Shown piece by piece: positions 2,726 to 25,200 of a stretch of 39,811 nt of DNA (positions are counted from its first letter, which is position 1; every line of letters begins with the position of its first letter). A program made the position numbers and the translations under genes. Source of the DNA: a virus. The notes under the pieces were generated by a model. The model was given only the letters and a program-made list of their open reading frames with translations. It was not told the DNA's origin and ran no database searches. The stretch is from positions 1 to 39,811 of the IMG/VR virus record IMGVR_UViG_3300045988_064194; one strand, 5' to 3'.

Positions 2726-3646
2726 ATGTCTGATGCAGTATTTGAACAGCGGCTGAATATGGCCGTGGAGCCGGACACGGCGACGCTTGTTGTCCGCGAC
2801 GCCATCAAAGGTGACAAGGGCGACAAAGGAGATAAAGGGGACACCGGGCCGCAGGGGCTGCAGGGGGAAACTGGCCCACAGGGCGAGAAAGGTGCAACCG
2901 GCGAAACCGGCCCGCAAGGCCCACAGGGCGAGAAGGGCGACACCGGCCCGCAAGGCGAGACCGGCCCGCAGGGCGAGCAGGGAAAGCAGGGCATCCAGGG
3001 GCCGCAGGGCAAACCCGGTTCCAGCGTCACGGGAATCACGCTTGTTGGGACCGTCGACGACACGACGACCTATCAGGTCTCGATGTCGGACGGGCAGTCG
3101 TTCTTGTTCTCGGTGAAAGCCGTGCCCGGCCCTGCCGGTGCGGCCGGTTCCCCCGGCACGCCGGGCACGAACGGAACGACCTTCACGCCGTCCGTCTCCG
3201 AGGACGGCACGCTCAGCTGGTCTAACGCAGACGGCAAGGAAAACCCGGCGAGCGTCAATATCAAAGGCCCGCAGGGCAGCCCCGGAGCAAAGGGCAACAA
3301 GGGTGATACCGGCCCGCAAGGGCAGACTGGCCCGCAGGGTGAGCAGGGGCCACAGGGAGAGCCCGGCCCCACCGGCCCGCAGGGCCCGACCGGCCCGAAC
3401 GCTGTCTCGACCACCACGGCGAGCAACATCACCGGCCTGCTCAAAGGCAGCGGCGGGAAGGTTGCACAGGCGGTAGCAAATACCGACTATATCAGCCCGG
3501 CCAACATGAAGACCTTCTTGAACCGGCAGACAGCGGTCAACGCCGCCGATACCAATTATACAACGTTGATGGCACGCGGCATGTCTCTGAATTCTGCTGA
3601 GACTACCCCAGCCGTGAACGGGGCCATTGCATGGCAATACGAATAA
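2726..3646 (+). CDS. Collagen-like repeat tail/virion fibre protein (306 aa)
   Basis: Two long Gly-X-Y blocks ([25 protein letters not shown]... and [19 protein letters not shown]...). AGGAGG RBS. The C-terminal module is shared with ORF 31782..31967. Confidence 0.8.
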
Positions 3647-4166: not shown

Positions 4167-4861
4167 TGGAGATCGACAGCTCCATCCGAGCGAAGTGGCA
4201 CGGCGGAAAGCGCAAGCTCTCCGCCATCACCGCCATCGTCATGCACTACACGGCAAACACGGGCCAGATGGCGACGGCCAAAGGGAACGCCCGCTATTTT
4301 GAGGGCGGCAGCGAGGGACGCAAGGCCTCGGCCCACTACGTCGTCGACGAGGGCAATGTGGCCTACGAGTGCGTGCCGCTCGATACCGTCGCCTGGTCCG
4401 TCGGAGACGGCAATAAGGGGCCGTATGGCAAGCTCGTCAACAACTACAACTCGGTATCGATCGAGATGGTCAGCCACACGGACGCCGCCGGGCGGTATTA
4501 CATCCCCGTCGAGACGCAGAGGCACGCGGCGGAGCTGTACGCGCAGCTGAAAAAACAGCTGCCGAACGTCAAGTATGTTGTTCGGCACTACGATGTCAGT
4601 CTGAAAAAATGCCCTGCGCCGATGATCGACGAGGGCGCATGGGCAAAATTCAAAAACCTGCTGGAGGAGGCAGAAGAAGTGAGATACGAAAAGCTGAAAG
4701 ACGTTACGAACCAGACGTACCGCCAGACGCTGGACAAACTGGTGGAGAAGGGCCTGCTCAAAGGCAAGGGCGGCGAGGGGGAAGACCTGCTGCTGGATCT
4801 GGCAGAGGACAACGTCCGCATGCTGATTATTCTCGACCGCACCGGTGTGTTCGGGGATTAA
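4163..4861 (+). CDS. Endolysin, N-acetylmuramoyl-L-alanine amidase (Amidase_2/PGRP type) with a C-terminal putative wall-binding module
   Basis: Motifs IVMHYTAN, ASAHYVVD, AWSVGD, SVSIEM, VVRHYDVSLKKCP. Position immediately after the holin. Confidence 0.85.
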   Translation: MMEIDSSIRAKWHGGKRKLSAITAIVMHYTANTGQMATAKGNARYFEGGSEGRKASAHYVVDEGNVAYECVPLDTVAWSVGDGNKGPYGKLVNNYNSVSIEMVSHTDAAGRYYIPVETQRHAAELYAQLKKQLPNVKYVVRHYDVSLKKCPAPMIDEGAWAKFKNLLEEAEEVRYEKLKDVTNQTYRQTLDKLVEKGLLKGKGGEGEDLLLDLAEDNVRMLIILDRTGVFGD

Positions 4862-4864
4862 GGT

Positions 4865-5080
4865 ATGCAGCGCGGTCTTCCGACGAAGCCGCGCAGCGAG
4901 TGGGAGCACCTAATCTCCGAATGGATCCTGAACGCCCAATACCGGGAGATCATGCGCCGGAACATCTGCGACGGCGCGACGGCGGAGCAGCTGGCCGAAC
5001 GGTACGGCTTTTCCGTGAACGGCATGAAGGGCATCATCAAACGTTGTACAACGATCTTATTAGAGGCAGGCGCGGAATGA
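4865..5080 (+). CDS. Small sigma-70 region-4-like HTH protein (71 aa), possible late regulator
   Basis: ...GATAEQLAERYGFSVNGMKGIIKRC... has an HTH pattern. Starts 4 nt after the endolysin stop. Confidence 0.45.
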   Translation: MQRGLPTKPRSEWEHLISEWILNAQYREIMRRNICDGATAEQLAERYGFSVNGMKGIIKRCTTILLEAGAE

Positions 5081-5099
5081 TCCGCGCTTGCCTCTTTTT
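5064..5099 (+). terminator. Rho-independent terminator after the lysis operon
   Basis: 13-bp stem (AGGCAGGCGCGGA / TCCGCGCTTGCCT, one G-U pair), loop ATGA, then CTTTTTG. Confidence 0.6.
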
Positions 5100-5199
5100 G
5101 TGCTTTTTATGGGCCTGCGCTTGGTTTTTTGTGATGACGTTTTCCCTCAGAATGACGGTAGGAGCTGGCCAGCTTACTACATCTTCGGAGGTATTTCTC

Positions 5200-5697
5200 A
5201 TGGAATACGCAAGCAATGGCAAGGGTAATCTGGGCGTGACGCTCGGTGCGATCGGCACCGGTCTTGGCGTGCTGAACGGCGGTCTCGGGGGCATTCTCGG
5301 CGGATTCGGCGCGAATCCTGCTGCAGCTGCGGCTATGGCTGCGGGTAACAGTGACAACCACTATGTCAGCCGTTATGAGGCTAGTCAGTCCGCACGAATC
5401 GCAGAGCTGGAGACGGAAGTGAAGCTGCGCGACGCGAACGCTTACACTGATAAGAAAATTCTCGAGGTGTACCAGTACACGGACGGCAGAATGCGCTCGA
5501 TCGAAGAGCAGCTTTGCCAGCAGCGCGTTATCAACGCGCAGACCACGGCGAACCTGTCCTGCATGCAGAACGAGATCGCGACTCTTTCCGGCATGACCAA
5601 GACGGTTATCCCCATTGCCAACATCTGCCCGGAACCGATGCAGCGGTATAACAGCTGGACGGCTCCGACCGGCACGGCTACCACCAGCGAGGGCTAA
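5200..5697 (+). CDS. Hypothetical protein, Gly-rich hydrophobic N-terminus plus coiled coil (165 aa)
   Basis: GGAGG RBS before ATG 5200. Only the 3' third of track ORF 4609..5697 looks coding. GC-rich hairpin at 5704-5723 after the stop. Confidence 0.55.
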   Translation: MEYASNGKGNLGVTLGAIGTGLGVLNGGLGGILGGFGANPAAAAAMAAGNSDNHYVSRYEASQSARIAELETEVKLRDANAYTDKKILEVYQYTDGRMRSIEEQLCQQRVINAQTTANLSCMQNEIATLSGMTKTVIPIANICPEPMQRYNSWTAPTGTATTSEG

Positions 5698-5745
5698 ATG
5701 CGAGGGGCGGCTATTGCCGCCCCAACTTAAAACGGAGGTATCTGT

Positions 5746-6084
5746 ATGACAGTGACAATAGATCAGGCCATGCGCGGCGCAGTACGGTTCGCTGATACTG
5801 AGGTCATCCCGCACCTGCCGGGCGGCAAGGGCATCGGGGCCGGGATCATGCTGGCGTTAATCATGGAGGGCAGCCGCGAAAAGATCCTTGCGCTGCGTGA
5901 GCATCCGGCTGTGAAGCTCATGCAGATCATGGACGAGCAAGGCAATATCGACCTTGACCGCCTGTACAACGCAGCAAGGCCGAAATTCGAAAACAAGCTG
6001 TCTGTGTCAGTTCCGCTCATTGGCGATTTGAAATTCGATCAGAACGACGTGGACAAGCTTTACAAATACATGCAGGAGGCGTGA
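5746..6084 (+). CDS. Hypothetical protein (112 aa) with one hydrophobic segment
   Basis: GGAGG RBS; coding-like composition; 1-nt gap to the next gene. Confidence 0.55.
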   Translation: MTVTIDQAMRGAVRFADTEVIPHLPGGKGIGAGIMLALIMEGSREKILALREHPAVKLMQIMDEQGNIDLDRLYNAARPKFENKLSVSVPLIGDLKFDQNDVDKLYKYMQEA

Positions 6085-6085
6085 T

Positions 6086-6559
6086 ATGGGAAAAGCGCAT
6101 TACATTGAGCAGCTCAAAGAGCAGATGCATGAGATAATGGAACGCCCGGTGACGCTGGGGCGCGCGGAAGAAGTTACGGTATATGCAGATGCTATCTGCG
6201 CGCTGCATAAGCTGGATGGTGACCATTTTCGTGAGTCCACGAAAATGATGGAATTTACCGAGGACGACGCAAAAGCGTGGACGGCCCGCATGGAGAACAC
6301 GGACGATACAACCGGCCAGCATTGGCCGATAGAGCAAACCACAGCAGTCATGCGGTCGCGCGGCCTGCACTATGATCCTGCTGTCTGGTACGCGGCAATG
6401 AATATGATCTACAGCGACTACTTCAAAACCGCAAAGAAGCACGGCGTCAACACCGTTGAATTTTTCGCGGACATGACCGACGCATTCCTCGACGATAAGG
6501 ATGCAGGCACCCCGGAAGAGAAAATCAGCTCGTATTATCATTGCGTAGTTTTGCCATAA
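6086..6559 (+). CDS. Hypothetical protein (157 aa)
   Basis: AGGAGG RBS 6 nt upstream of the ATG. Last gene before the attP-like region. Confidence 0.6.
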   Translation: MGKAHYIEQLKEQMHEIMERPVTLGRAEEVTVYADAICALHKLDGDHFRESTKMMEFTEDDAKAWTARMENTDDTTGQHWPIEQTTAVMRSRGLHYDPAVWYAAMNMIYSDYFKTAKKHGVNTVEFFADMTDAFLDDKDAGTPEEKISSYYHCVVLP

Positions 6560-10621: not shown

Positions 10622-10888
10622 ATGAATTTCAAACCGTGTTCCATTGAGGAAACCAAGAAAGCCGCAACCAAAGGCATTTATGCAGACTTCGTTGAGAGCT
10701 TCCGCGCGAGCGGCGCAGAATGCGCCAGAGTTGACGGTCTCACAACAAGGACGGACAGTGCGTATGCTTCGCTGAGTATGGCAGCCAGAAGGGCGGGCGA
10801 CGTTCGCTGCATGATTCGGAAAGGCGTGATCTATTTGGCGCGTGTGGATGCGCTGGATAAGATGGAGGCGGCAGGATGCCAGCGGTAA
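10622..10888 (+). CDS. Hypothetical early protein (88 aa)
   Basis: Strong AAGGAGGA RBS; first gene of the rightward operon. Confidence 0.6.
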   Translation: MNFKPCSIEETKKAATKGIYADFVESFRASGAECARVDGLTTRTDSAYASLSMAARRAGDVRCMIRKGVIYLARVDALDKMEAAGCQR

Positions 10889-16878: not shown

Positions 16879-17158
16879 TGCGAACCGGCTATACGACGCA
16901 GCAGAAGAAAAGTACATGGAAGATCGGAGCAAAACCGAGAATGTTATCACGCGCGCAATGTTGAGCCAAGCGCGACAGAAAATTCAGGAGCTGATTGCAT
17001 ATGCACCCTCGGTAGACGCTGAACCGGTCGTGCGTTGCCAAGATTGCAAGAATTTCCGTCGGAATGAAGAAAATGACCCGTACTGCGCAGATCGGAGAGG
17101 GCTTTCAGACCCGGAGCCTGACGGGTATTGCAGCTACGGAGAACGGAGGGAAGAATAA
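16865..17158 (+). CDS. Hypothetical Cys-rich protein (97 aa), paralogue of the previous gene
   Basis: ...PVVRCQDCKN...YCSYGER motif; overlaps the upstream gene by 14 nt. Confidence 0.55.
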   Translation: MWLIDANRLYDAAEEKYMEDRSKTENVITRAMLSQARQKIQELIAYAPSVDAEPVVRCQDCKNFRRNEENDPYCADRRGLSDPEPDGYCSYGERREE

Positions 17159-17161
17159 AGG

Positions 17162-17932
17162 ATGAGCCTAACAGACGCTGCCAGATACACCACAATGATT
17201 ATGGCGCAGAATCCAGACTGGTGCGCCAAAAGAATGGAAAACTTCGAGAAGTACATCACGGAAAATAGTGCTGGTGCTGCCGAGGTGTGTAATGAAAGGA
17301 AAGACAACTCCGCGATGAACACACACATTACAAACATCAAGGGCGATTGGCAGGAGGTCGTGGACACCTGCCGCGCCACTTCCGGAAAAGGGCCGCTCGG
17401 GCATGAGCCAAGCAAGGAGTTCAAGCGGCGGATCCTGATCGCTGAGCACTCGCCCATCCGCCGGATCTCGGTATCGTGGATATGGGAGGGGGTCAAAAGC
17501 TGGATCGCTACGCACTGGAGCCGCCATAAGTGGGAATGCTTCATTTCCACGCAGCGGACAGATCGGACAGGCACACCGCGGGACAAGCTGCCGCAGGACG
17601 CGCCGGTGATCTTCGAGGGAGAAGCGAACGTACAAGCCCTGATCGATTCCATGCGCAAGCGGTTATGCAGTCAGGCAGCCCCTGAGACGCGCGCGTATGC
17701 CGAGGATTTCAAAGCGGCGCTGCATGAGATTCAGCCGGAGATCTCGGACGTGTTGGTGCCAAACTGCATTTACCGGTGCGGATGCCCGGAGATGCAGCCA
17801 TGCGGGATGTACGAATGGTGGCTGAAATTTCACCCGGACATTGCAAGCACGGACATTCAGAAGCGGTATAACACTTACAACGAACTGTTTTGGAAAGCGA
17901 GGGCAAAACGTGGGAACGATACTGGCGATTGA
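17162..17932 (+). CDS. Divergent ThyX-like (FAD-dependent thymidylate-synthase fold) protein
   Basis: AEHSPIRR...WSRHKWECFISTQRTDR resembles the ThyX RHRx7S..R signature. The downstream NVQALIDSMRKRLCSQAAPETRAYA resembles the ThyX N-x3-L...R..S.A..E helix. Confidence 0.55.
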   Translation: MSLTDAARYTTMIMAQNPDWCAKRMENFEKYITENSAGAAEVCNERKDNSAMNTHITNIKGDWQEVVDTCRATSGKGPLGHEPSKEFKRRILIAEHSPIRRISVSWIWEGVKSWIATHWSRHKWECFISTQRTDRTGTPRDKLPQDAPVIFEGEANVQALIDSMRKRLCSQAAPETRAYAEDFKAALHEIQPEISDVLVPNCIYRCGCPEMQPCGMYEWWLKFHPDIASTDIQKRYNTYNELFWKARAKRGNDTGD

Positions 17933-18419
17933 CCCCGGCAATATTCAATCCGGCTATGTAATCGTAGAGCATGACGGCGAGGAGATCCGCCGTGTGCTGG
18001 AGGTCGGGAAAATCGAGAACAATGTGCTGCTCCCGCTAATCGCGCAGAAGCTTTACGGGAACGGCTACGACGTTGCAATCGAGATGATCGCGGGCATGGG
18101 CATGACGGTAGGCCAAGAGGTTTTTGATACTTGCGTCTGGATCGGGCGGTTCTGGCAGACCGTATTGTGGCAGACTGGATATGGGCCGACGCGAATCTTC
18201 CGCCGGGAAGAAAAGCTGGATCTGTGCGGCTCACTATCTGCCAAAGATGCAAACATCCGTCAAGCCCTCGTCGACCGCTACGCGCCCGGCCAGCCGAACT
18301 TCGGAAAGGGGACGAAAAAGGATCCCGGTTTCTTCTACGGTTTCTCGGCGGACATGTGGGCAGCTATGGCCGTTGCAACCACATATTTTGATAAGTACAT
18401 CAAGGGGGTAAAGCTGTAA
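17910..18419 (+). CDS. RuvC-like Holliday-junction resolvase
   Basis: GTILAIDPGNIQSGYVIV, VAIEMI and ADMWAAMAVA give a RuvC-type acidic-residue pattern. GTG 17910 is chosen as the start and is uncertain. Confidence 0.7.
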   Translation: MGTILAIDPGNIQSGYVIVEHDGEEIRRVLEVGKIENNVLLPLIAQKLYGNGYDVAIEMIAGMGMTVGQEVFDTCVWIGRFWQTVLWQTGYGPTRIFRREEKLDLCGSLSAKDANIRQALVDRYAPGQPNFGKGTKKDPGFFYGFSADMWAAMAVATTYFDKYIKGVKL

Positions 18420-18754
18420 TGGCAAATATCACGGCGACCTGCCCGGTTTGCGGGAAAGTGTTTACCCGGCCCTGCAAGCCGCGCGCGGATGGCCGGTATC
18501 TCTGCAGCCGGGCGTGTGCCGGGGCATGGCGCAAGCTGCATCCAATCTGCACGGGCAAGCGGCGAGATCGCGCATGGGATGAGGTACGGGTCCAGATCAC
18601 GGCGGTCATTCCGGTCTATCCCGCCATGCGCCCACGCATGGGCGAAGTGTACGACGCGGAAAAATATGAATACGTCAGCAGCATGCCCGGGTATGTTGTG
18701 CGCGTCGGAGACAAGCGGGTCTGTGTGAGGGTGGACGAATGCAGGGAGATTTAA
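18419..18754 (+). CDS. Hypothetical zinc-ribbon protein (111 aa)
   Basis: CPVCG...CSRAC. TAATG overlap with the resolvase stop. Confidence 0.55.
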   Translation: MANITATCPVCGKVFTRPCKPRADGRYLCSRACAGAWRKLHPICTGKRRDRAWDEVRVQITAVIPVYPAMRPRMGEVYDAEKYEYVSSMPGYVVRVGDKRVCVRVDECREI

Positions 18755-18972
18755 GAATCAGCCCATATTCCGCTCCGTGCGGCAGCTGCCCCGAGAAAGG
18801 CTGCGGGGCAAAGCATACGACCTGCGAGGCGTACATAGCGTTCCGGGCCTCCGTGGACGAGTACAAAAAGAACAAGGCTGAATCCGCTGAGCGCAAAAAG
18901 GCGACGGGCAGCCTGCGTTCACGGGTCCGGAAATACGACAGAGCAAAACGCGAAGGGAGGGTGCACTATTGA
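18739..18972 (+). CDS. Hypothetical Cys-rich basic protein (77 aa)
   Basis: Overlaps its neighbours; CGSCPEKGCG...C. Confidence 0.5.
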   Translation: MQGDLRISPYSAPCGSCPEKGCGAKHTTCEAYIAFRASVDEYKKNKAESAERKKATGSLRSRVRKYDRAKREGRVHY

Positions 18973-19232
18973 TGAGCGGGATCACAGAGCAGGAATATGC
19001 GGCGTGGCTGGAAAAGGCGTTGCAAGCGCTCTATAAATCCAAGCCGCTTGCAATCGCGATTGTGGCAAAAACAGGAGCGGGAAATACGCTTACGGGCTAC
19101 TACAATGCGGACGCACAGGACAAGGCCGTGTTTGCCCACCATATCCAAAGCGATATCGTGCTGGACATTATCAAGGCAAATGCCGCAGAAATCAAGGCCA
19201 TGATGGAGGGCGTAGACGATGGAACAGATTAA
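18972..19232 (+). CDS. Hypothetical protein (86 aa)
   Basis: The ATG shares one nt with the upstream TGA. Confidence 0.5.
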   Translation: MSGITEQEYAAWLEKALQALYKSKPLAIAIVAKTGAGNTLTGYYNADAQDKAVFAHHIQSDIVLDIIKANAAEIKAMMEGVDDGTD

Positions 19233-19734
19233 GGGGGCAAAGTACGACGAGGGCAAGCCCCGCCCGTCGCTCGTGCCGGTGGAGGGCATCGAGGCGATCA
19301 TGCAGGTGCGCGAATATGGAATGCGGAAGTACGGTGATGCCGAGGACTGGCGAAGTATAGCCCCTGAAAGGTGGCACGACGCCCTTCTGCGCCACGTTCT
19401 GCATATCTGGGATAATCCGCTGGCGCTTGACGATGAGAGCGGCCTGCCGGCTCTGTGGCATGTTATAACTAATGCTGCGTTTCTGTGCGCGGCGTACAAA
19501 GATGATATCGATGAATTTTATGCTGAAGCAAAGGAGCTGAATGAAGCAGCGGGCGAACGGTGGGATAAGATGGTGCAAAGCGCATTAAACAATCCAATAG
19601 CGAAGGATATTCACGTCGACTGGGTCTGGACAGGGCCAGGGCCCGACCCGCGCGGGGAAGAAGGAGATCTTGGGCCTGGTGTTACAAAGGAGGCGAAGCA
19701 ATGCGGGGACGCGAGCGGACGCGGCAACGACTGA
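19219..19734 (+). CDS. DUF5664 / dATP-dGTP diphosphohydrolase N-terminal-domain-like protein
   Basis: KYDEGKPRPSLVP...REYGMRKYGDAEDW...WHDALLRHVLHIW...DESGLPALWHVITNAAFL matches the pattern of that family as I remember it. Confidence 0.5.
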   Translation: MEQIKGAKYDEGKPRPSLVPVEGIEAIMQVREYGMRKYGDAEDWRSIAPERWHDALLRHVLHIWDNPLALDDESGLPALWHVITNAAFLCAAYKDDIDEFYAEAKELNEAAGERWDKMVQSALNNPIAKDIHVDWVWTGPGPDPRGEEGDLGPGVTKEAKQCGDASGRGND

Positions 19735-19910
19735 GGGCGGAGCTGCACCGACGCAATATCAGGATCAATCAACTGCCGGAGTACATACCGTACTCCGGCA
19801 AGACGTGTTACAAATACCTGTCAGGCAAGGGCGAAATCTCCAAAGAGTTTGTGGACGCTGTGCAGATCTTGCTTGATAGATGGGATAATAAGCGAAGCGC
19901 CCGGCCTTAA
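19701..19910 (+). CDS. Small basic HTH-like protein (69 aa)
   Basis: AAGGAGG RBS 7 nt upstream; last gene of the rightward early operon. Confidence 0.45.
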   Translation: MRGRERTRQRLRAELHRRNIRINQLPEYIPYSGKTCYKYLSGKGEISKEFVDAVQILLDRWDNKRSARP

Positions 19911-19925
19911 TTGGCTGGGCGCTTT
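19894..19925. terminator. Bidirectional terminator hairpin between convergent operons
   Basis: Stem of about 12 bp, GAAGCGCCCGGCC / GGCTGGGCGCTTT, with loop TTAATT containing the TAA of 19701..19910. Confidence 0.55.
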
Positions 19926-19928
19926 CGT

Positions 19929-20135
19929 TTATTCTCCGCGCATGATGGCTTTGATGGCTTCCGACTGGCTGCGGCCGTTGACAATATGGCGGTCGATGGC
20001 GTCTATCAGCACCGCGTCTTCCGGGTTATCCATTCGAAGCGTAAGCGTAAACTTGCGGTAAGTCTTCGCATTATAGCGCATTTTTACTTCGCTGCTGGTA
20101 TGCGTTTTCCGCGTTGGCTTCTGTTCTTCTGGCAT
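19929..20135 (-). CDS. Arc/CopG-like ribbon-helix-helix protein (68 aa); island gene D
   Basis: AGGAGG RBS before ATG 20135. YRKFTLTLRMDNPEDAVLIDAIDRHIVNGRSQSEAIKAIM has an RHH pattern. The upstream part of track ORF 19929..20333 looks non-coding. Confidence 0.6.
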   Translation of the reverse strand: MPEEQKPTRKTHTSSEVKMRYNAKTYRKFTLTLRMDNPEDAVLIDAIDRHIVNGRSQSEAIKAIMRGE

Positions 20136-20199
20136 GGTGTTTCCTCCTGTCAGCGCTCTCATGCTTGCAATATCCTTTGTTTCTTGTGCCTCGTCTGAA

Positions 20200-20982
20200 T
20201 CATAAAAAATGAATATGGATTTCTCCGCTTCTGATTTTTGTGTTGAGAAACGCGGCCTCTGGATTCGGGGCGTTCTCAATGCTTTTCTTGCATAAATAAA
20301 GTACGATCTGCAAAGCCTGTCTGTGCGCGGCAAGCTCGGCGTTTCTCAACTCCAAAGTTGTGATCATGGCTCTGCGGATCTCTGGATTATCATCCGATAG
20401 ATTTTTCAGCGCTTCGTTTACCGTATGAGATAAGCTCGAACGAACCGTTTTTTTTCCAAGATGGATTGGGATGCCGATGGTTTTGCCGGTTTCCTTGAGA
20501 TACAGCAGCCGCAGCTCGTGGTCGCCGCTATTTACATCATCCTCAAGATGCACAAACACACCGTGGCACGGAGAATCAATATACCGAAAGCCGTCAGCGA
20601 ATTGCACATAAAAAGATCGGTACGGGATATGGTACAGCGCCTTGCTATCGATCTCAAACTCCTCATCTTCTTGTGCAAACAATCGTTCCTGCAAAGAACG
20701 GCCAACGATAAACACATCCTTGTTTTCAATCCATGGTGCAAGGGCGGCGATCTCTTGCGTTGCCTTTGTGGCGGCAGAAATGTTTTCGTATGTGCCAGGA
20801 GAATCGCCCATCGCAATCGCCATTGCCGCGGACATTGGTGCATAGCACCATTGATTCCATCTCGGAAGCCCGTTCTTGCCGTTCATTTCATGGAACAGTT
20901 TCATTTTCTCCCAGGCATCAGGGTATTCTTCTGTTACTCTCTGCAACAGAGCAAGCGGTGGATATGATGGATCAATTCGCAT
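20200..20982 (-). CDS. Hypothetical protein (260 aa); island gene C
   Basis: GGAGGAG RBS. The start overlaps the gene B stop by 11 nt. No motif recognised. Confidence 0.65.
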   Translation of the reverse strand: MRIDPSYPPLALLQRVTEEYPDAWEKMKLFHEMNGKNGLPRWNQWCYAPMSAAMAIAMGDSPGTYENISAATKATQEIAALAPWIENKDVFIVGRSLQERLFAQEDEEFEIDSKALYHIPYRSFYVQFADGFRYIDSPCHGVFVHLEDDVNSGDHELRLLYLKETGKTIGIPIHLGKKTVRSSLSHTVNEALKNLSDDNPEIRRAMITTLELRNAELAAHRQALQIVLYLCKKSIENAPNPEAAFLNTKIRSGEIHIHFL

Positions 20983-21736
20983 TCTTGATCTCCTCCACCT
21001 TTTCCTTGTACGCTGCCAGCGCGGACTTGTAGTTTTTTATGGCTGAAACATCTTCATCGGAAATACTTGTTTCCGTATTATCCAGGTAAATGCGCCAGTT
21101 TCCGGGCCTTCCATAGAATTTCCCGTTCCAGCGTCCTGCCGGGTAGCATACAGGGCGTTCCGGTTTTTCGAGCGCTGCTATTGCGCTCGCAACAGCGGCG
21201 TCGCCTTCTGCGAGGTGCTTTGCCATATCGCAGAAGAGCATATGATCCATCTGCGTGAAAGCGTTCTTGGATTCGAGTTCAGGGATGATCTCTTTCAGCG
21301 AGCGGATCGCATCGGAAACAGCAGAGGAAACGGCTTCTGAAAATTCTTTTGCAGTGGTATATTTGGGCGCCGGAAGTTCCTTGCTCCAACACGCGTTGAA
21401 TCGAGTTCCCATATCCAGGATGCCGGACAATCCTGTTTCAAACGGAACATCCCAGCGATAGCCGCGAGATTTGAGTGCATCCTTCACGGGCCGGGTGTTC
21501 CCGGTAATGGAGATCACGATCTGTGCATTGAGAACATCAAGCCCAACGAGCGCCGTGATCGGATTCTTCGATTCTTCGGAGCGCATACGCTTTGCGTAGC
21601 AGGCAGGGCATTCCGTATAGTGGTCTGCCGCCCACAAAGCCCAGCTATCAGCTTCGGCGCGGAGCCCTTTGTTGGCCGTTCTCGTAAATTCTGTTCCGCA
21701 TGTTTCACATTTGCAGTAAGCTGTTGCTTTTGCCAT
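20972..21736 (-). CDS. Hypothetical protein with an N-terminal zinc ribbon (254 aa); island gene B
   Basis: GAGGGGG RBS before ATG 21736. CKCETCG...CPAC. The ITGNTRPVKDALKSRGYRWD segment resembles small DUF5710-like beta-alpha modules. Confidence 0.65.
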   Translation of the reverse strand: MAKATAYCKCETCGTEFTRTANKGLRAEADSWALWAADHYTECPACYAKRMRSEESKNPITALVGLDVLNAQIVISITGNTRPVKDALKSRGYRWDVPFETGLSGILDMGTRFNACWSKELPAPKYTTAKEFSEAVSSAVSDAIRSLKEIIPELESKNAFTQMDHMLFCDMAKHLAEGDAAVASAIAALEKPERPVCYPAGRWNGKFYGRPGNWRIYLDNTETSISDEDVSAIKNYKSALAAYKEKVEEIKNAN

Positions 21737-21825
21737 GATATTTGCCCCCTCATTTTTATTATACTGCTCCAATGCGGTTGCACCGAAGCAGTTTTTGTTG
21801 GAATGGAATGTGGTGGATCTAAAAC

Positions 21826-22041
21826 TCAGATCTTCTCGCCGCAGCATACGCGATACTGGATCTCTGCGGGTATATTGTGTTCAGTCCGCCCGCAATACCA
21901 ACGGGAGAGGATCTCGCCGCTATCATCGTAGCTGGCTTTTTCGGCCAGCTTAAGAAGCCGGCTTGCAGAGTTCGAGCGGTGGAAGAAAAACATCTGGCCG
22001 TTTTCGTCATATGCCTTAAAGAAGTATTTATACTGTTTCAT
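21826..22041 (-). CDS. Hypothetical small protein (71 aa); island gene A
   Basis: AGGAGG RBS before ATG 22041; about 50 nt downstream of the sigma-A promoter. Confidence 0.5.
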   Translation of the reverse strand: MKQYKYFFKAYDENGQMFFFHRSNSASRLLKLAEKASYDDSGEILSRWYCGRTEHNIPAEIQYRVCCGEKI

Positions 22042-22096
22042 TTTGTGTTCCTCCTGTGTTCCAGCACCGGGGCGGATTCTTTGTTTCTGTGGCTTC

Positions 22097-22125
22097 ATCA
22101 TAGCGCATACACCGGAGTATGTCAA
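22097..22125 (-). promoter_or_regulatory. Near-consensus sigma-A promoter of the minus-strand island (TTGACA-17-TATGAT)
   Basis: Minus strand reads cTTGACAtactccggtgtatgcgcTATGATgaag. -35 at 22120-22125, -10 at 22097-22102. Confidence 0.6.
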
Positions 22126-22147
22126 GAGGTTTCCCGAAAAAATTTTC

Positions 22148-22162
22148 TTGACCATGTGTCAA
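22148..22162. promoter_or_regulatory. Palindrome TTGAC-N5-GTCAA just upstream of the island promoter (possible operator)
   Basis: TTGACcatgtGTCAA. Confidence 0.3.
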
Positions 22163-22361
22163 TAGCTTTATTTACCCATTTTCAAACGGGCTCAAACCAT
22201 TGCGGCGCAAGGCTTTCAGGCGTTTTGTGCTGTGGTCAAATTCTTTACCATGAATCAAAATCGCTGTTATGCTTGCGCTAGCAGCGCAGCGCTGCAAGCC
22301 AGCTTGCAAGCGTGCGCAGGCGACGCGCAAGCGCAATTTTCACGCCTCGGGAGGTGGCAGC

Positions 22362-22775
22362 ATGGCGAAGGGCGAGCGGGGAAAGCGGATCAATATTGAG
22401 CAGAAAGCCGCCGTCATTGCCGAGTATGCCAACAGCGGAACGATCACAGATGCTGCAAAAGCAGGCGGCGTATCTTGGGAAACGGCGCGGAAGCTCATTA
22501 ACAACAATATGGATGTCGCTGAAGCGGTAAAAAAGACCGCCGAGGAGCGCATGAAAGAGTTTGCAAACAGCCGCCTGGACAAGGTGCAGGCCGCCATTGA
22601 TGTTGTATTGGATGATCTCCCGGACAAGCTGCAAAAGAGCAATGCGCTCCAATCTGCAACGGTTCTTGGCATTCTGATGGACAAATTCGGAGGCCAAAAG
22701 GACTTCAACGGCAATGCCGTACAGGTCAATGTAACATTTGGAAATAAGGCCGGAGACATGGACGCTTTCAAGTGA
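22362..22775 (+). CDS. terS: Putative terminase small subunit (137 aa, N-terminal HTH)
   Basis: GGGAGGTGG RBS. HTH-like QKAAVIAEYANSGTITDAAKAGGVSWETARKLI. Position upstream of terL. Confidence 0.55.
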   Translation: MAKGERGKRINIEQKAAVIAEYANSGTITDAAKAGGVSWETARKLINNNMDVAEAVKKTAEERMKEFANSRLDKVQAAIDVVLDDLPDKLQKSNALQSATVLGILMDKFGGQKDFNGNAVQVNVTFGNKAGDMDAFK

Positions 22776-22810
22776 ACGCCACCAAATACTCATTTTGTGG
22801 CGTTCGTTTT
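22775..22810 (+). terminator. Terminator-like hairpin directly after terS
   Basis: AACGCCAC(c)AAA...TTT(t)GTGGCGTT followed by CGTTTTCTTC. Confidence 0.5.
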
Positions 22811-23211
22811 CTTCGAGAAGTTCAGATAACTACTAGAATTACGTAGATATCAGAACTATATTCAGATATACGTGCATACCGCGTATATTATGCAGTGCAT
22901 AAGCAGGGCAGAAGCATGCATAAAGCTATGTGCTGCGCGTGCCTGGGCTGCGTGCGTACATCAGTAAGCCCAGGCTGCGGGCCATTAAGGCCCCGCGCTG
23001 CGCGTGTGTGCAGCCGTGTGTGCGTACCCCTCCACCAAATCAAGAGAGGCATAGGGGAGGGTGGCGGAAAAACACCCGGGTAGTTTCATACTAGTATATA
23101 TATAATATCCCATCCACGTGTGCATCCCATCCCAAAGAGGGTACCTACAAAACTGACGGCACCCTTCTGAAACATGCCTCTGAAAAATTTCAAAAACCAG
23201 ACAAAAAGACC

Positions 23212-23332
23212 GTGCTGTGTTGGTCTTGCCTGTCTTCGGCAGGCAGGTGAATCCTCCTTGTTTCATCTTTCTTCCCTTCATCTTGTTCTGCCGGGTGCCA
23301 GGAACACCCGGCAGGCAAGACGAGCACAGCAC
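23212..23332 (+). other. Long-range 21-nt inverted repeat enclosing local hairpins just upstream of the terL RBS (candidate structured RNA/DNA element)
   Basis: GTGCTGTGTTGGTCTTGCCTG (23212-23232) pairs with CAGGCAAGACGAGCACAGCAC (23312-23332) with 1 mismatch and 1 G-U. An inner 10-bp hairpin CTGCCGGGTG/CACCCGGCAG lies at 23288-23314. Confidence 0.4.
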
Positions 23333-23343
23333 AGAGGTACTGC

Positions 23344-24741
23344 ATGGGCAAGCAATCGTACAAGCGAACAGCGCCGGGTGAGACGGTAAAGATCGACCTC
23401 GGCAAGCCGAACAGCGAACCGCAGCGGCAGTTCTTTGCCTCGACGGTGAAGTACACCTGCTACGGCGGCGCGCGAGGCGGCGGCAAGAGCTGGTGCACGC
23501 AGAGAAAGCCGGTCGGTGCCTGTCTGTATTATCCGGGATTGAAGATCCTGATCCTCAGACGACGGTACGAGGATCTGGAGAACAGCGTCATCGATCCGAT
23601 TGTCAAACTGGTCCCGGAGACTGTTGCCGTGTACAACGTGCAGAAGCACCTTCTGTCGTTCAAAAACGGCTCGACGATCAAATTCGGCAACATGGACGGC
23701 TTCGGATCCGCTGTCGCCGGTAAGTATCAGGGCCAGGAATACGACTGGATCTTCATCGAGGAAGCGACGCAGTTTACCGAGCAGGAGTTCCGCGGGATCG
23801 CGGCCTGCTGCCGAGGCGCCACGCCGTTTCCAAAGCGGATGTACCTGACGTGCAACCCGGGCGGCATCGGGCACCAGTGGGTCAAGCGCCTGTTTGTCAA
23901 GCGCGACTTCCTGCCGAACGAGAACCCGGACGATTATCTGTTCATTAAAGCGACAGTCGAAGACAACGTCGACCTGTTGGAAGGGTCCCCCGACTATGTC
24001 AATGCGCTGGACCTTCTGCCGGAGGATGTGCGCAGGGCGCACCGGTACGGCGACTGGGACGCGCTGTCCGGCGGCTTCTTCCCGGAGTTCCGGCGCGGGG
24101 TGCATACCTTCCCGGAAGACTTTCCGATTGACCCGCGCTGGGCGAAATACCGGGCGTTCGACTACGGCCTCGATATGTTTGCCTGCCTGTGGATCGCGGT
24201 TGACTTTTCCGGGCGCTGCTATGTGTACAGGCAGTACAACGAATCCAAGCTCATTGTCTCCGAGGCAGCGAGTGCGGCGATCTCGCTGACGCCTGCACGG
24301 GAGCGCATCGAATACACCATTGCCCCGCCGGATATGTGGTCGACGCAGAAGGACACCGGCAAGACGATGGCGCAGATCTTCAGCGAATGCGGGTTGCCGG
24401 TCTTGAAAGCGGCCAATAACCGAGTGCAGGGCTTCATGTCCGTCAAGGAAATGCTGAAGCTGCTGCCGGACGGGAAGCCGGGGCTGATGATCTGCGAGAG
24501 CTGTAAGAGCCTGATCGACGATATTCAGGCCATCCAGCACGACGAGAAGAACCCGAACGACTGCGCCAAGCAGCCGCACGAGCTGACACACGACGTCGAC
24601 GCCTTGCGCTACTTCTGCGTCATGCGGACACTCAAACCGGAGAAGCCAGTCGAGGTGGACGACTACGAGGAAGACCAGCTGGACGACTACGACGAATATA
24701 TGACCGGAGGCGCGCCGAGCGCTTCTTATATCGGCTATTAA
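23344..24741 (+). CDS. terL: Terminase large subunit
   Basis: Walker A CYGGARGGGKSW, Walker B-like DWIFIEEATQF, and a C-terminal nuclease region ...FDYGLDMFACLW...HELTHDVDALRY. Confidence 0.92.
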   Translation: MGKQSYKRTAPGETVKIDLGKPNSEPQRQFFASTVKYTCYGGARGGGKSWCTQRKPVGACLYYPGLKILILRRRYEDLENSVIDPIVKLVPETVAVYNVQKHLLSFKNGSTIKFGNMDGFGSAVAGKYQGQEYDWIFIEEATQFTEQEFRGIAACCRGATPFPKRMYLTCNPGGIGHQWVKRLFVKRDFLPNENPDDYLFIKATVEDNVDLLEGSPDYVNALDLLPEDVRRAHRYGDWDALSGGFFPEFRRGVHTFPEDFPIDPRWAKYRAFDYGLDMFACLWIAVDFSGRCYVYRQYNESKLIVSEAASAAISLTPARERIEYTIAPPDMWSTQKDTGKTMAQIFSECGLPVLKAANNRVQGFMSVKEMLKLLPDGKPGLMICESCKSLIDDIQAIQHDEKNPNDCAKQPHELTHDVDALRYFCVMRTLKPEKPVEVDDYEEDQLDDYDEYMTGGAPSASYIGY

Positions 24742-24777
24742 CCTATTTACCTACAAGAATACACGGGAGATATGTTT

Positions 24778-25200
24778 ATGAACACGACGACTGCTGCATG
24801 GGTGTTTGCCCGCGCGATCCATCTGATGGACGAGCAGAACGAGTCAACCGGCGAGACCTCCACCGCGGACACCGCCGAGTATAAACTCCGGACGCTGTCT
24901 ATCCTCAACATCCTGCGGCACGAGCTGTTCCCGTATTCCGACACCTACGAGGCGCAGGACGACGGCACGCGGGATATCTGCAGGGAGATCACGAACTTCA
25001 CGGACGTCATCGACCTGGACGACGTGCTCGCGCAGGGCATCATGCCCTACGGCCTCGCGGCACACCTGCTGCTGGGGGAAAACGACTCGATGGCGGCGTT
25101 CTTCAACGCCAAGTATTCCGAGCTGATCCAGACGCTGGCCGCGAAGAAGGCTTCAAAGTGGGAGGACATCACGCCCTACTACGGCGGACTGTGCTGCTGA
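24778..25200 (+). CDS. Hypothetical head-module protein (140 aa; possible head-tail adaptor)
   Basis: GGGAGA sits 7 nt before ATG 24778; ATG 24772 is too close to the RBS. Lies between terL and the scaffold gene. Confidence 0.5.
   Translation: MNTTTAAWVFARAIHLMDEQNESTGETSTADTAEYKLRTLSILNILRHELFPYSDTYEAQDDGTRDICREITNFTDVIDLDDVLAQGIMPYGLAAHLLLGENDSMAAFFNAKYSELIQTLAAKKASKWEDITPYYGGLCC

Follow-up and report, generated by a model that had tools for sequence, protein, structure and literature searches.

Imported cargo with a tail-less AcrVA2/FinQ-family gene in a probably self-regulated slot of a temperate gut Oscillospiraceae phage

What is a block of four genes that reads against its neighbors doing between the early genes and the terminase gene terS of a temperate phage, and where did it come from? 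The question is raised by the IMG/VR virus record IMGVR_UViG_3300045988_064194, which we analyzed over its full length of 39,811 nucleotides (hereafter, the window) and which is a complete, 39.8-kb genome of a gut Oscillospiraceae phage with direct terminal repeats. An earlier reading of this DNA that relied on the letters alone (the sequence-only reading) had taken the block, an island of minus-strand genes A, B, C and D, for a self-contained unit and a candidate novel accessory or defense system, none of whose large proteins could be named. On both counts, we arrive at a different picture. The island is a hybrid that combines a conserved slot (promoter, dyad, D and terminator) with imported A-B-C cargo, and C is a short-form protein of the AcrVA2/FinQ family (Pfam PF26125), the family of a prophage anti-CRISPR and a plasmid fertility inhibitor. 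The interpretation that we favor, with a probability of roughly 0.55, is that the island is an operon resembling the acr-aca (anti-CRISPR and anti-CRISPR-associated) operons and acting in counter-defense or in conflict between genetic elements.

A conserved slot and its imported cargo

The composite nature of the island shows in where nucleotide identity to other genomes begins and ends. The high-identity match elsewhere (97.3-98.7%) is restricted to the A-B-C segment, which begins 15 nt before the start codon of A and ends 6 nt after the stop codon of C; both the promoter and D lie outside it. Copies of the A-B-C cassette (L017-L034 and L061) occupy two other contexts. In relatives of the window phage (L023-L030, L034 and L061), the cassette is located just after the amidase gene, a lysin-proximal position that is empty in the window (4861-5200), where the amidase is followed directly by a small gene and a terminator. 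In an unrelated, tape-measure-bearing prophage (L017-L022 and L031-L033), its place is between the lysin and the end of the prophage, with the host polC gene just past that end in L019, L020 and L022. These donor cassettes come with a control apparatus of their own: all 19 copies carry the promoter TTGACATATACGGTA(A/T)TACAGTATATA(C/A)T with the dyad ATACGGTA-N-TACAGTAT, and 18 of them also a different terminal gene and terminator, the terminal gene being cut short in L029. This gene encodes a protein of 59-70 aa that matches the CopG-like repressor family PHROG 7325 (E=3.2e-6).

The promoter of the window, the start of its 5' untranslated region, D and the terminator, in turn, are common to sister phages that hold other cargo in the same position, between a dGTP-diphosphohydrolase-like gene and terS. 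Upstream of the same D gene there are four cargo sets, A-B-C in the window and three in the sisters, namely, a 159-aa J-domain protein with a 145-aa protein (L054-L057), an 81-aa with a 145-aa protein (L058), and proteins of 159, 60 and 75 aa (L089-L092). Between the window and the donor cassettes, the cargo stays 97% identical while the promoter-dyad and the small terminal gene differ together, in two pairs. That each promoter-dyad travels with its own terminal gene is the best argument at hand for autoregulation by these small proteins. The comparisons show that A-B-C was acquired as one block from a mobile cassette that other Oscillospiraceae phages carry, and the island is not self-contained, since the promoter and D belong to the slot and the other three genes to the cargo. 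A nucleotide search of GenBank phages with positions 17000-24800 returned no match.

The promoter, which matches the sigma-70-type consensus at 11 of 12 positions, is the top-scoring site of the region, and the same promoter is present in L054, L058 and L089-L092, all with different cargo. Within its spacer lies a dyad, CATACTCCGGTGTATG, that occurs once in the window, against a chance expectation of 0.06 matches; it is identical in L089-L092 and becomes a perfect 16-bp palindrome, CATACACCGGTGTATG, in L054 and L058. We regard the dyad region, CATACWCCGGTGTATG, as the candidate target sequence of D. The sequence-only reading had proposed another operator, the palindrome TTGAC-N5-GTCAA next to the promoter. 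This palindrome is indeed there, but its right arm is missing in L054, L058 and L089 despite the same D gene and promoter, so that it is not kept even in the closest relative, L089, and it is probably not the operator. Downstream of D, L054 has a homologous terminator hairpin with a better T-tail.

D itself has homologues in this phage lineage only, where they are always last in the operon, behind variable cargo, and have a nearly invariant stretch of 34 N-terminal residues. The sequence pattern is like that of ribbon-helix-helix (RHH) proteins, with a weak best PHROG match (PHROG 10566, E=0.1); RHH and helix-turn-helix (HTH) models gave no match in Pfam (for D and 13 homologues), NCBIfam or the PDB profile search, and hhalign lent no support to a relationship with the CopG-like protein of the donor cassette. 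Taken together with its place in the slot, D is a probable autorepressor, similar in role to the Aca proteins, with a putative RHH fold and putative DNA binding.

Two observations on the alternative cargo of the sister phages concern its own nature. The 159-aa protein (L054 4039-4518 and L089 2564-3043) has an N-terminal J-domain, with a weak match to Pfam DnaJ and a strong one to PHROG 15863, followed by a C-terminal mini-domain, GNTREHKESLKALGCKW, that is shared with B (central mini-domain GNTxxxKxxLKxxGxxW); it may be another accessory or anti-defense candidate. The 145-aa gene of L054 (4549-4986) is represented in L089 by its C-terminal half alone, the 75-aa gene at 3259-3486, which indicates ongoing rearrangement or decay of the cargo within the slot.

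The layout of the genome is that of a temperate phage (Table 1). At 6.8-10.4 kb, the minus strand encodes the integrase and HTH repressors; from about 11.1 kb, the genes that flank the island read on the plus strand, with the early genes (ERF, SSB, PAPS-reductase-like and RusA-like) followed by terS, which starts at 22269, and terL, at 23344, downstream of the island. The last early gene ends at 19910, and the gap to terS is filled by the four minus-strand open reading frames (ORFs). Much of what had been seen in the letters stands: the ORFs, the strong, AGGAGG-type ribosome-binding sites ahead of all four genes, the promoter and the terminal hairpin make up a four-gene block with its own predicted start and end of transcription; its orientation is opposite to that of the flanks; it is richer in AT (GC 0.48-0.52 compared with 0.55-0.59 in the flanks); and the start of C overlaps the stop of B by 11 nt. 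The island is an accessory operon, and probably a self-regulated one. The description as an accessory cassette is upheld by the host-type promoter, the orientation, the GC content, the autoregulator-like terminal gene and the mobility, but the defense role that came with it is not.

Table 1. Features of the island in the window
Feature	Position	Strand	Remark
Gene D, 68 aa	19929-20135	-	ORF; last in operon, conserved anchor of the slot
Gene C, 260 aa	20200-20982	-	ORF; AcrVA2/FinQ family, short form
Gene B, 254 aa	20972-21736	-	ORF; zinc-ribbon family
Gene A, 71 aa	21826-22041	-	ORF; without detectable relatives outside the cassette
Imported A-B-C cargo segment	20194-22056	-	97.3-98.7% nucleotide identity to cassettes elsewhere
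Sigma-70-type promoter TTGACA-17-TATGAT	22097-22125	-	11/12 match; owned by the slot, not by the cargo
16-bp dyad CATACTCCGGTGTATG, arms CATACTCC/GGTGTATG	22106-22121	.	Inside the -35/-10 spacer; candidate D operator
Palindrome TTGACACATGGTCAA (TTGAC-N5-GTCAA)	22148-22162	.	Present in the window; right arm missing in relatives
Hairpin terminator, 13-bp stem	19894-19925	.	Serves both the minus-strand operon and the plus-strand early genes that run towards it

A tail-less AcrVA2/FinQ-family protein and its companions

Profile and structure searches, which the sequence-only reading had put forward as the way to examine B and C, yielded no PDB match for B and gave C, previously considered to be devoid of recognizable motifs, a family. 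A profile of 23 homologues of C compared with PDB sequences retrieves AcrVA2 (7ci1, E=3.7e-16). The AlphaFold2 (AF2) model of C, with a predicted local distance difference test (pLDDT) score of 87.6, has Foldseek matches in the PDB only to AcrVA2 (7ci1 and 7ci2, probability 1.00), with template modeling (TM) scores of 0.52-0.56 over 245-251 aligned columns and the next match at E=0.34; the sequence identity between C and AcrVA2 is 12-13%. The family PF26125, 'AcrVA2-like', is recorded for members of the 90%-identity cluster of C, such as P0036, and for P0001, which is 98% identical to C, and PHROG 6160, a family of unknown function, matches C at 3e-17 and a full-length AcrVA2-like protein at 1e-35. 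The name PF26125 does not appear in the literature that we searched. Among PHROGs, C is the only one of the four proteins that is clearly matched; Pfam and NCBIfam gave no match for A, B, C or D, where for C the Pfam result has to be read with the fact that the copy scanned did not include PF26125.

What sets C apart within the family is the absence of its tail. AcrVA2 inhibits Cas12a through recognition of the nascent N-terminal peptide of that protein. In AcrVA2, the C-terminal residues H286, R288 and H291 are essential for the down-regulation of Cas12a mRNA, and the respective mutants still bind Cas12a; mutants of W79 and D89 partially lose activity (Marino et al., bioRxiv 10.1101/2022.11.29.518452). 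In the alignment, the domain that holds this HxRxxH signature is missing from C as well as from P0002 and P0003, which are 59-61% identical to C and likewise end before it, whereas the motif RPHMRRGHWH is present in all 20 long forms. Searches for the tail domain, by hidden Markov model (HMM) on C and by tblastn and six-frame HMM across the window, produced noise only. The column of W79 is invariant, with W84 in C, and the column of D89 follows the division between the forms: Asp in all long forms, Gly in C, and Ser in P0002 and P0003. The short forms make up a monophyletic clade nested among the long forms (support 0.999). A long and a short form are found at corresponding positions in L004 and L007, two loci with the same small gene downstream.

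That C is a decaying pseudogene is ruled out by the ratio of nonsynonymous to synonymous polymorphism (pN/pS), which is 0.27 over 13 distinct cassette alleles, together with the monophyly of the 60%-diverged short-form clade. Given this purifying selection and the common ancestry of the short forms, C is a maintained tail-less variant. A split gene, with the tail supplied by a neighbor, was considered and rejected as well: hhalign of the tail domain found nothing in B and, in D, an alignment of 22 columns that is not significant (E=0.084). The D segment involved, VKMRYNAKTYRKFTLTLR (residues 14-35, window 20030-20097), resembles IKDRYAEIRKWDVGVRIG, a linker stretch past the truncation point in long AcrVA2-like proteins, and, at that E-value, the likeness is probably due to chance. 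Separately, we note that L007 has an IS605 OrfB/TnpB (Cas12f-like) gene (4976-6091) at a distance of about 3.3 kb from a further AcrVA2-like gene of the short form.

B, the upstream neighbor of C, belongs to a large, uncharacterized zinc-ribbon family (1151 cluster representatives at E<=1e-3 in a profile search), none of whose representatives has a relevant Pfam family. B begins with a Cys-rich zinc ribbon at its N-terminus and has a beta-beta-alpha-beta mini-domain, GNTRPVKDALKSRGYRW, and, towards the C-terminus, a WNGKxYG module. Its AF2 model is of high confidence (pLDDT 94.7), and neither structure nor profile comparison finds a match in the PDB; in BFVD, the zinc ribbon alone recurs, in small phage proteins. 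A segment of B had been likened to DUF5710, and this assignment fails: the Pfam model (PF18974) has no match in B at E<=1 and none in the whole window at E<=10, so that the sole support is a weak Foldseek match (E=1.8e-3) to an 865-aa protein annotated as DUF5710. In one representative, P0264 (850 aa), a SNF2-type helicase carries the post-ribbon core of the B family (profile positions 41-237) as a fusion at its C-terminus. B is under purifying selection similar to that on C, with a pN/pS of 0.23 across the 13 distinct alleles.

The association of the B family with AcrVA2-like genes extends beyond this cassette. Another phage lineage, represented by L013-L016 and many IMG/VR contigs, has a comparable island of opposite orientation in the interval from the early genes to terS. 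It is made up of genes for a B homologue at 35% identity, for a protein of 213 aa with a weak HTH signal and for an AcrVA2-like protein of full length. B-family genes thus adjoin AcrVA2-like genes in two phage lineages. An obligate link is ruled out by several B homologues without an AcrVA2-like neighbor, and the association is a recurrent one. Further look-ups of B-family neighborhoods yielded no context, or no more than a 1-kb contig. A is a real coding gene, with a pN/pS of 0.27 (13 distinct alleles), and has no matches in Pfam, PHROGs, PADLOC, NCBIfam, the PDB or GenBank phages.

Counter-defense, exclusion or something else

The host side of the story comes from an uncultured Oscillospiraceae metagenome-assembled genome (MAG; G001), in which the cassette is present within prophage L061. 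The MAG contains cas1, cas3 and a CRISPR array of eight repeats and seven spacers (contig C10; L087 10759-11262), whose repeat resembles those of type I-C systems. The canonical protospacer-adjacent motif (PAM) of type I-C systems is 5'-TTC, and relatives of the window phage contain matches to three of the seven spacers next to exactly this PAM. One of the three matches the prophage of the MAG itself (L061 4234-4267), with a single mismatch at position 10, outside the seed. Self-targeting is a classical pointer to a prophage-encoded anti-CRISPR, and its occurrence in this lysogen suggests such a gene in the prophage. As for other effectors, no match to Cas9 and none to Cas12a (TIGR04330) was found in this MAG, the Cas12a search with control genomes that were equally negative and, hence, with no positive control.

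The oldest spacer of the array (spacer 0, 10792-10827), TTGACTTATACGGTATTACCGTATATTATAAAGTT, deserves a separate remark. It consists of a promoter with a perfect dyad, of the same family as the promoter of the donor cassette, and differs from the cassette copies (L017 8850-8884 and L024 4604-4638) by 5-6 mismatches, with no TTC PAM there; its sequence suggests that further elements carry the donor-type regulator-operator.

Under the interpretation that we favor, the strong host-type promoter with its spacer dyad would drive A, B and C in an initial burst, after which D would bind the dyad and shut the promoter. C would act as a specific binder, derived from the AcrVA2 scaffold, whose target is a single protein, either of host defense or of a rival element, and B may be a cofactor or a second inhibitor, given its translational coupling to C and the recurrent link with AcrVA2-like genes. 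The type I-C CRISPR-Cas system of the host is a candidate target, and the net role would be counter-defense that shields the phage and the prophage. Several points speak against it. C lacks the domain that is essential for the only characterized activity of the family, so that the tail-less protein may do something else or act weakly, and FinQ is directed at a rival plasmid rather than at host immunity (bioRxiv 10.1101/2022.11.29.518452). B often occurs without an AcrVA2-like neighbor, and both the RHH fold of D and its binding to DNA are putative. The self-targeting comes from a metagenome bin, where a mixture of strains could explain it; the spacer gives no pointer to the responsible prophage gene; and none of the seven spacers matches the window phage itself.

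The case of FinQ leads to the rival that we take most seriously, although we consider it improbable on balance, namely, that the island is an exclusion or defense gene set (a moron) expressed in the lysogen, in which C, with B, silences or blocks a gene that a superinfecting phage or plasmid brings in. FinQ, an AcrVA2 homologue and fertility inhibitor of IncI plasmids, reduces the mRNA of transfer genes on a rival plasmid (bioRxiv 10.1101/2022.11.29.518452), and the host-type promoter, opposite orientation and separate terminator all fit prophage morons, as does the lysin-proximal moron position of the cassette at the prophage end in other phages; a distant homologue in Lactobacillus phage JCL1032 is likewise located between the lysin and attP. 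The absence from C of the very tail that the family needs for mRNA down-regulation speaks against a mechanism of this kind, however, and it is the hallmark of acr-aca operons that a small regulator is conserved while the cargo varies; the self-targeting spacer of the lysogen also suggests a prophage anti-CRISPR. As to defense in particular, none of the four proteins (A-D) matched a PADLOC-DB defense model at E<=1, and the proposal of a novel defense system gives way to counter-defense or inter-element conflict, to which the architecture and the family of C point. A further rival is cargo that takes over or regulates host processes other than immunity, for example, proteostasis or nucleic-acid metabolism, with C as a repurposed scaffold. 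The J-domain protein of the alternative cargo, which shares a mini-domain with B, the fusion of the B core to a SNF2 helicase in one relative and the absence of the effector tail from C speak for such a role. We deem it unlikely all the same, considering that the only characterized relatives of any gene in the island act in genetic conflict and that the turnover and mobility of the cargo are typical of arms-race genes. A toxin-antitoxin-like module, as suggested by the sequence-only reading, or abortive infection, in which B or C would be toxic and D the RHH antitoxin, would account for the small RHH-like gene in the operon, the coupled translation of B and C and the dyad in the promoter. It is nevertheless highly improbable, because A-B-C moved without a cognate RHH gene and now stands beside an unrelated one, a transfer that would uncouple toxin from antitoxin, and because no toxin domain was found in A-D in Pfam, NCBIfam or PADLOC; moreover, D remains constant while the cargo changes, and C belongs to an anti-CRISPR family.

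A bolder version of the counter-defense interpretation can be formulated, one that we offer as speculation and would not expect to hold. Short C and B could conceivably be a new two-part inhibitor that neutralizes the type I-C system of the host, in which C would retain no more than the target-recognition body of AcrVA2, with B replacing the HxRxxH effector or with C acting as a pure binder. The D slot and the CopG cassette would then represent two new families of Aca-like regulators that flag undiscovered anti-defense genes, the J-domain protein included, in gut Oscillospiraceae phages.

AcrVA2 couples the recognition of a peptide to the destruction of an mRNA, and a natural tail-less clade under purifying selection separates these two functions; it could reveal the action of the protein body itself, or a partner that stands in for the tail. 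Conserved slots made of a promoter, a dyad and a regulator, with exchangeable cargo, provide a handle for finding anti-defense genes in uncultured human-gut phages that are very common, and the spacers with correct PAMs point to a type I-C system as a concrete host setting for such genes.

Relation to known systems

The closest known counterpart of C is AcrVA2, the anti-CRISPR of a Moraxella bovoculi prophage (PDB 7CI1/7CI2). The two proteins share the family and the fold over about 250 residues, including the equivalent of W79 (W84 in C), and both are encoded in an accessory locus of a temperate phage. They differ in that C ends before the domain with H286, R288 and H291 and has Gly in place of D89. 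Most AcrVA2 homologues are found in bacteria without Cas12a (bioRxiv 10.1101/2022.11.29.518452). FinQ, which is borne by IncI1 plasmids and inhibits the fertility of F, is similarly a homologue of AcrVA2 on a mobile element that is aimed at another element; unlike C, it keeps the C-terminal HxR region according to the preprint, and it resides on a plasmid.

With acr-aca operons, the island has in common an inverted repeat in a strong promoter, upstream cargo that varies, and a small conserved gene, here for a putative regulator, in the last position. It departs from them in D, which has no detectable sequence similarity to the regulator families described so far and whose RHH fold is putative. 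RHH-type Aca regulators with promoter-embedded repeats were described in 2026 with Aca14, whose repeat overlaps the -10 element (NAR 2026, PMC13551039), whereas the dyad of the window is in the -35/-10 spacer. Prophage hot spots of morons and defense genes are similar in their fixed place between conserved modules, opposite orientation, lower GC content and exchangeable contents; in contrast to those, this slot has a conserved promoter-operator and regulator of its own, and the sole cargo gene that can be identified comes from an anti-CRISPR family, with no match to defense models.

Thus, the family of C, the logic of the operon and the existence of RHH-type Aca regulators were already known. 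What this locus adds is a tail-less clade, without the D89 residue, that is maintained by purifying selection, the transfer of the A-B-C block into a second, differently regulated slot, and the D-anchored slot with variable cargo, along with the type I-C spacer evidence.

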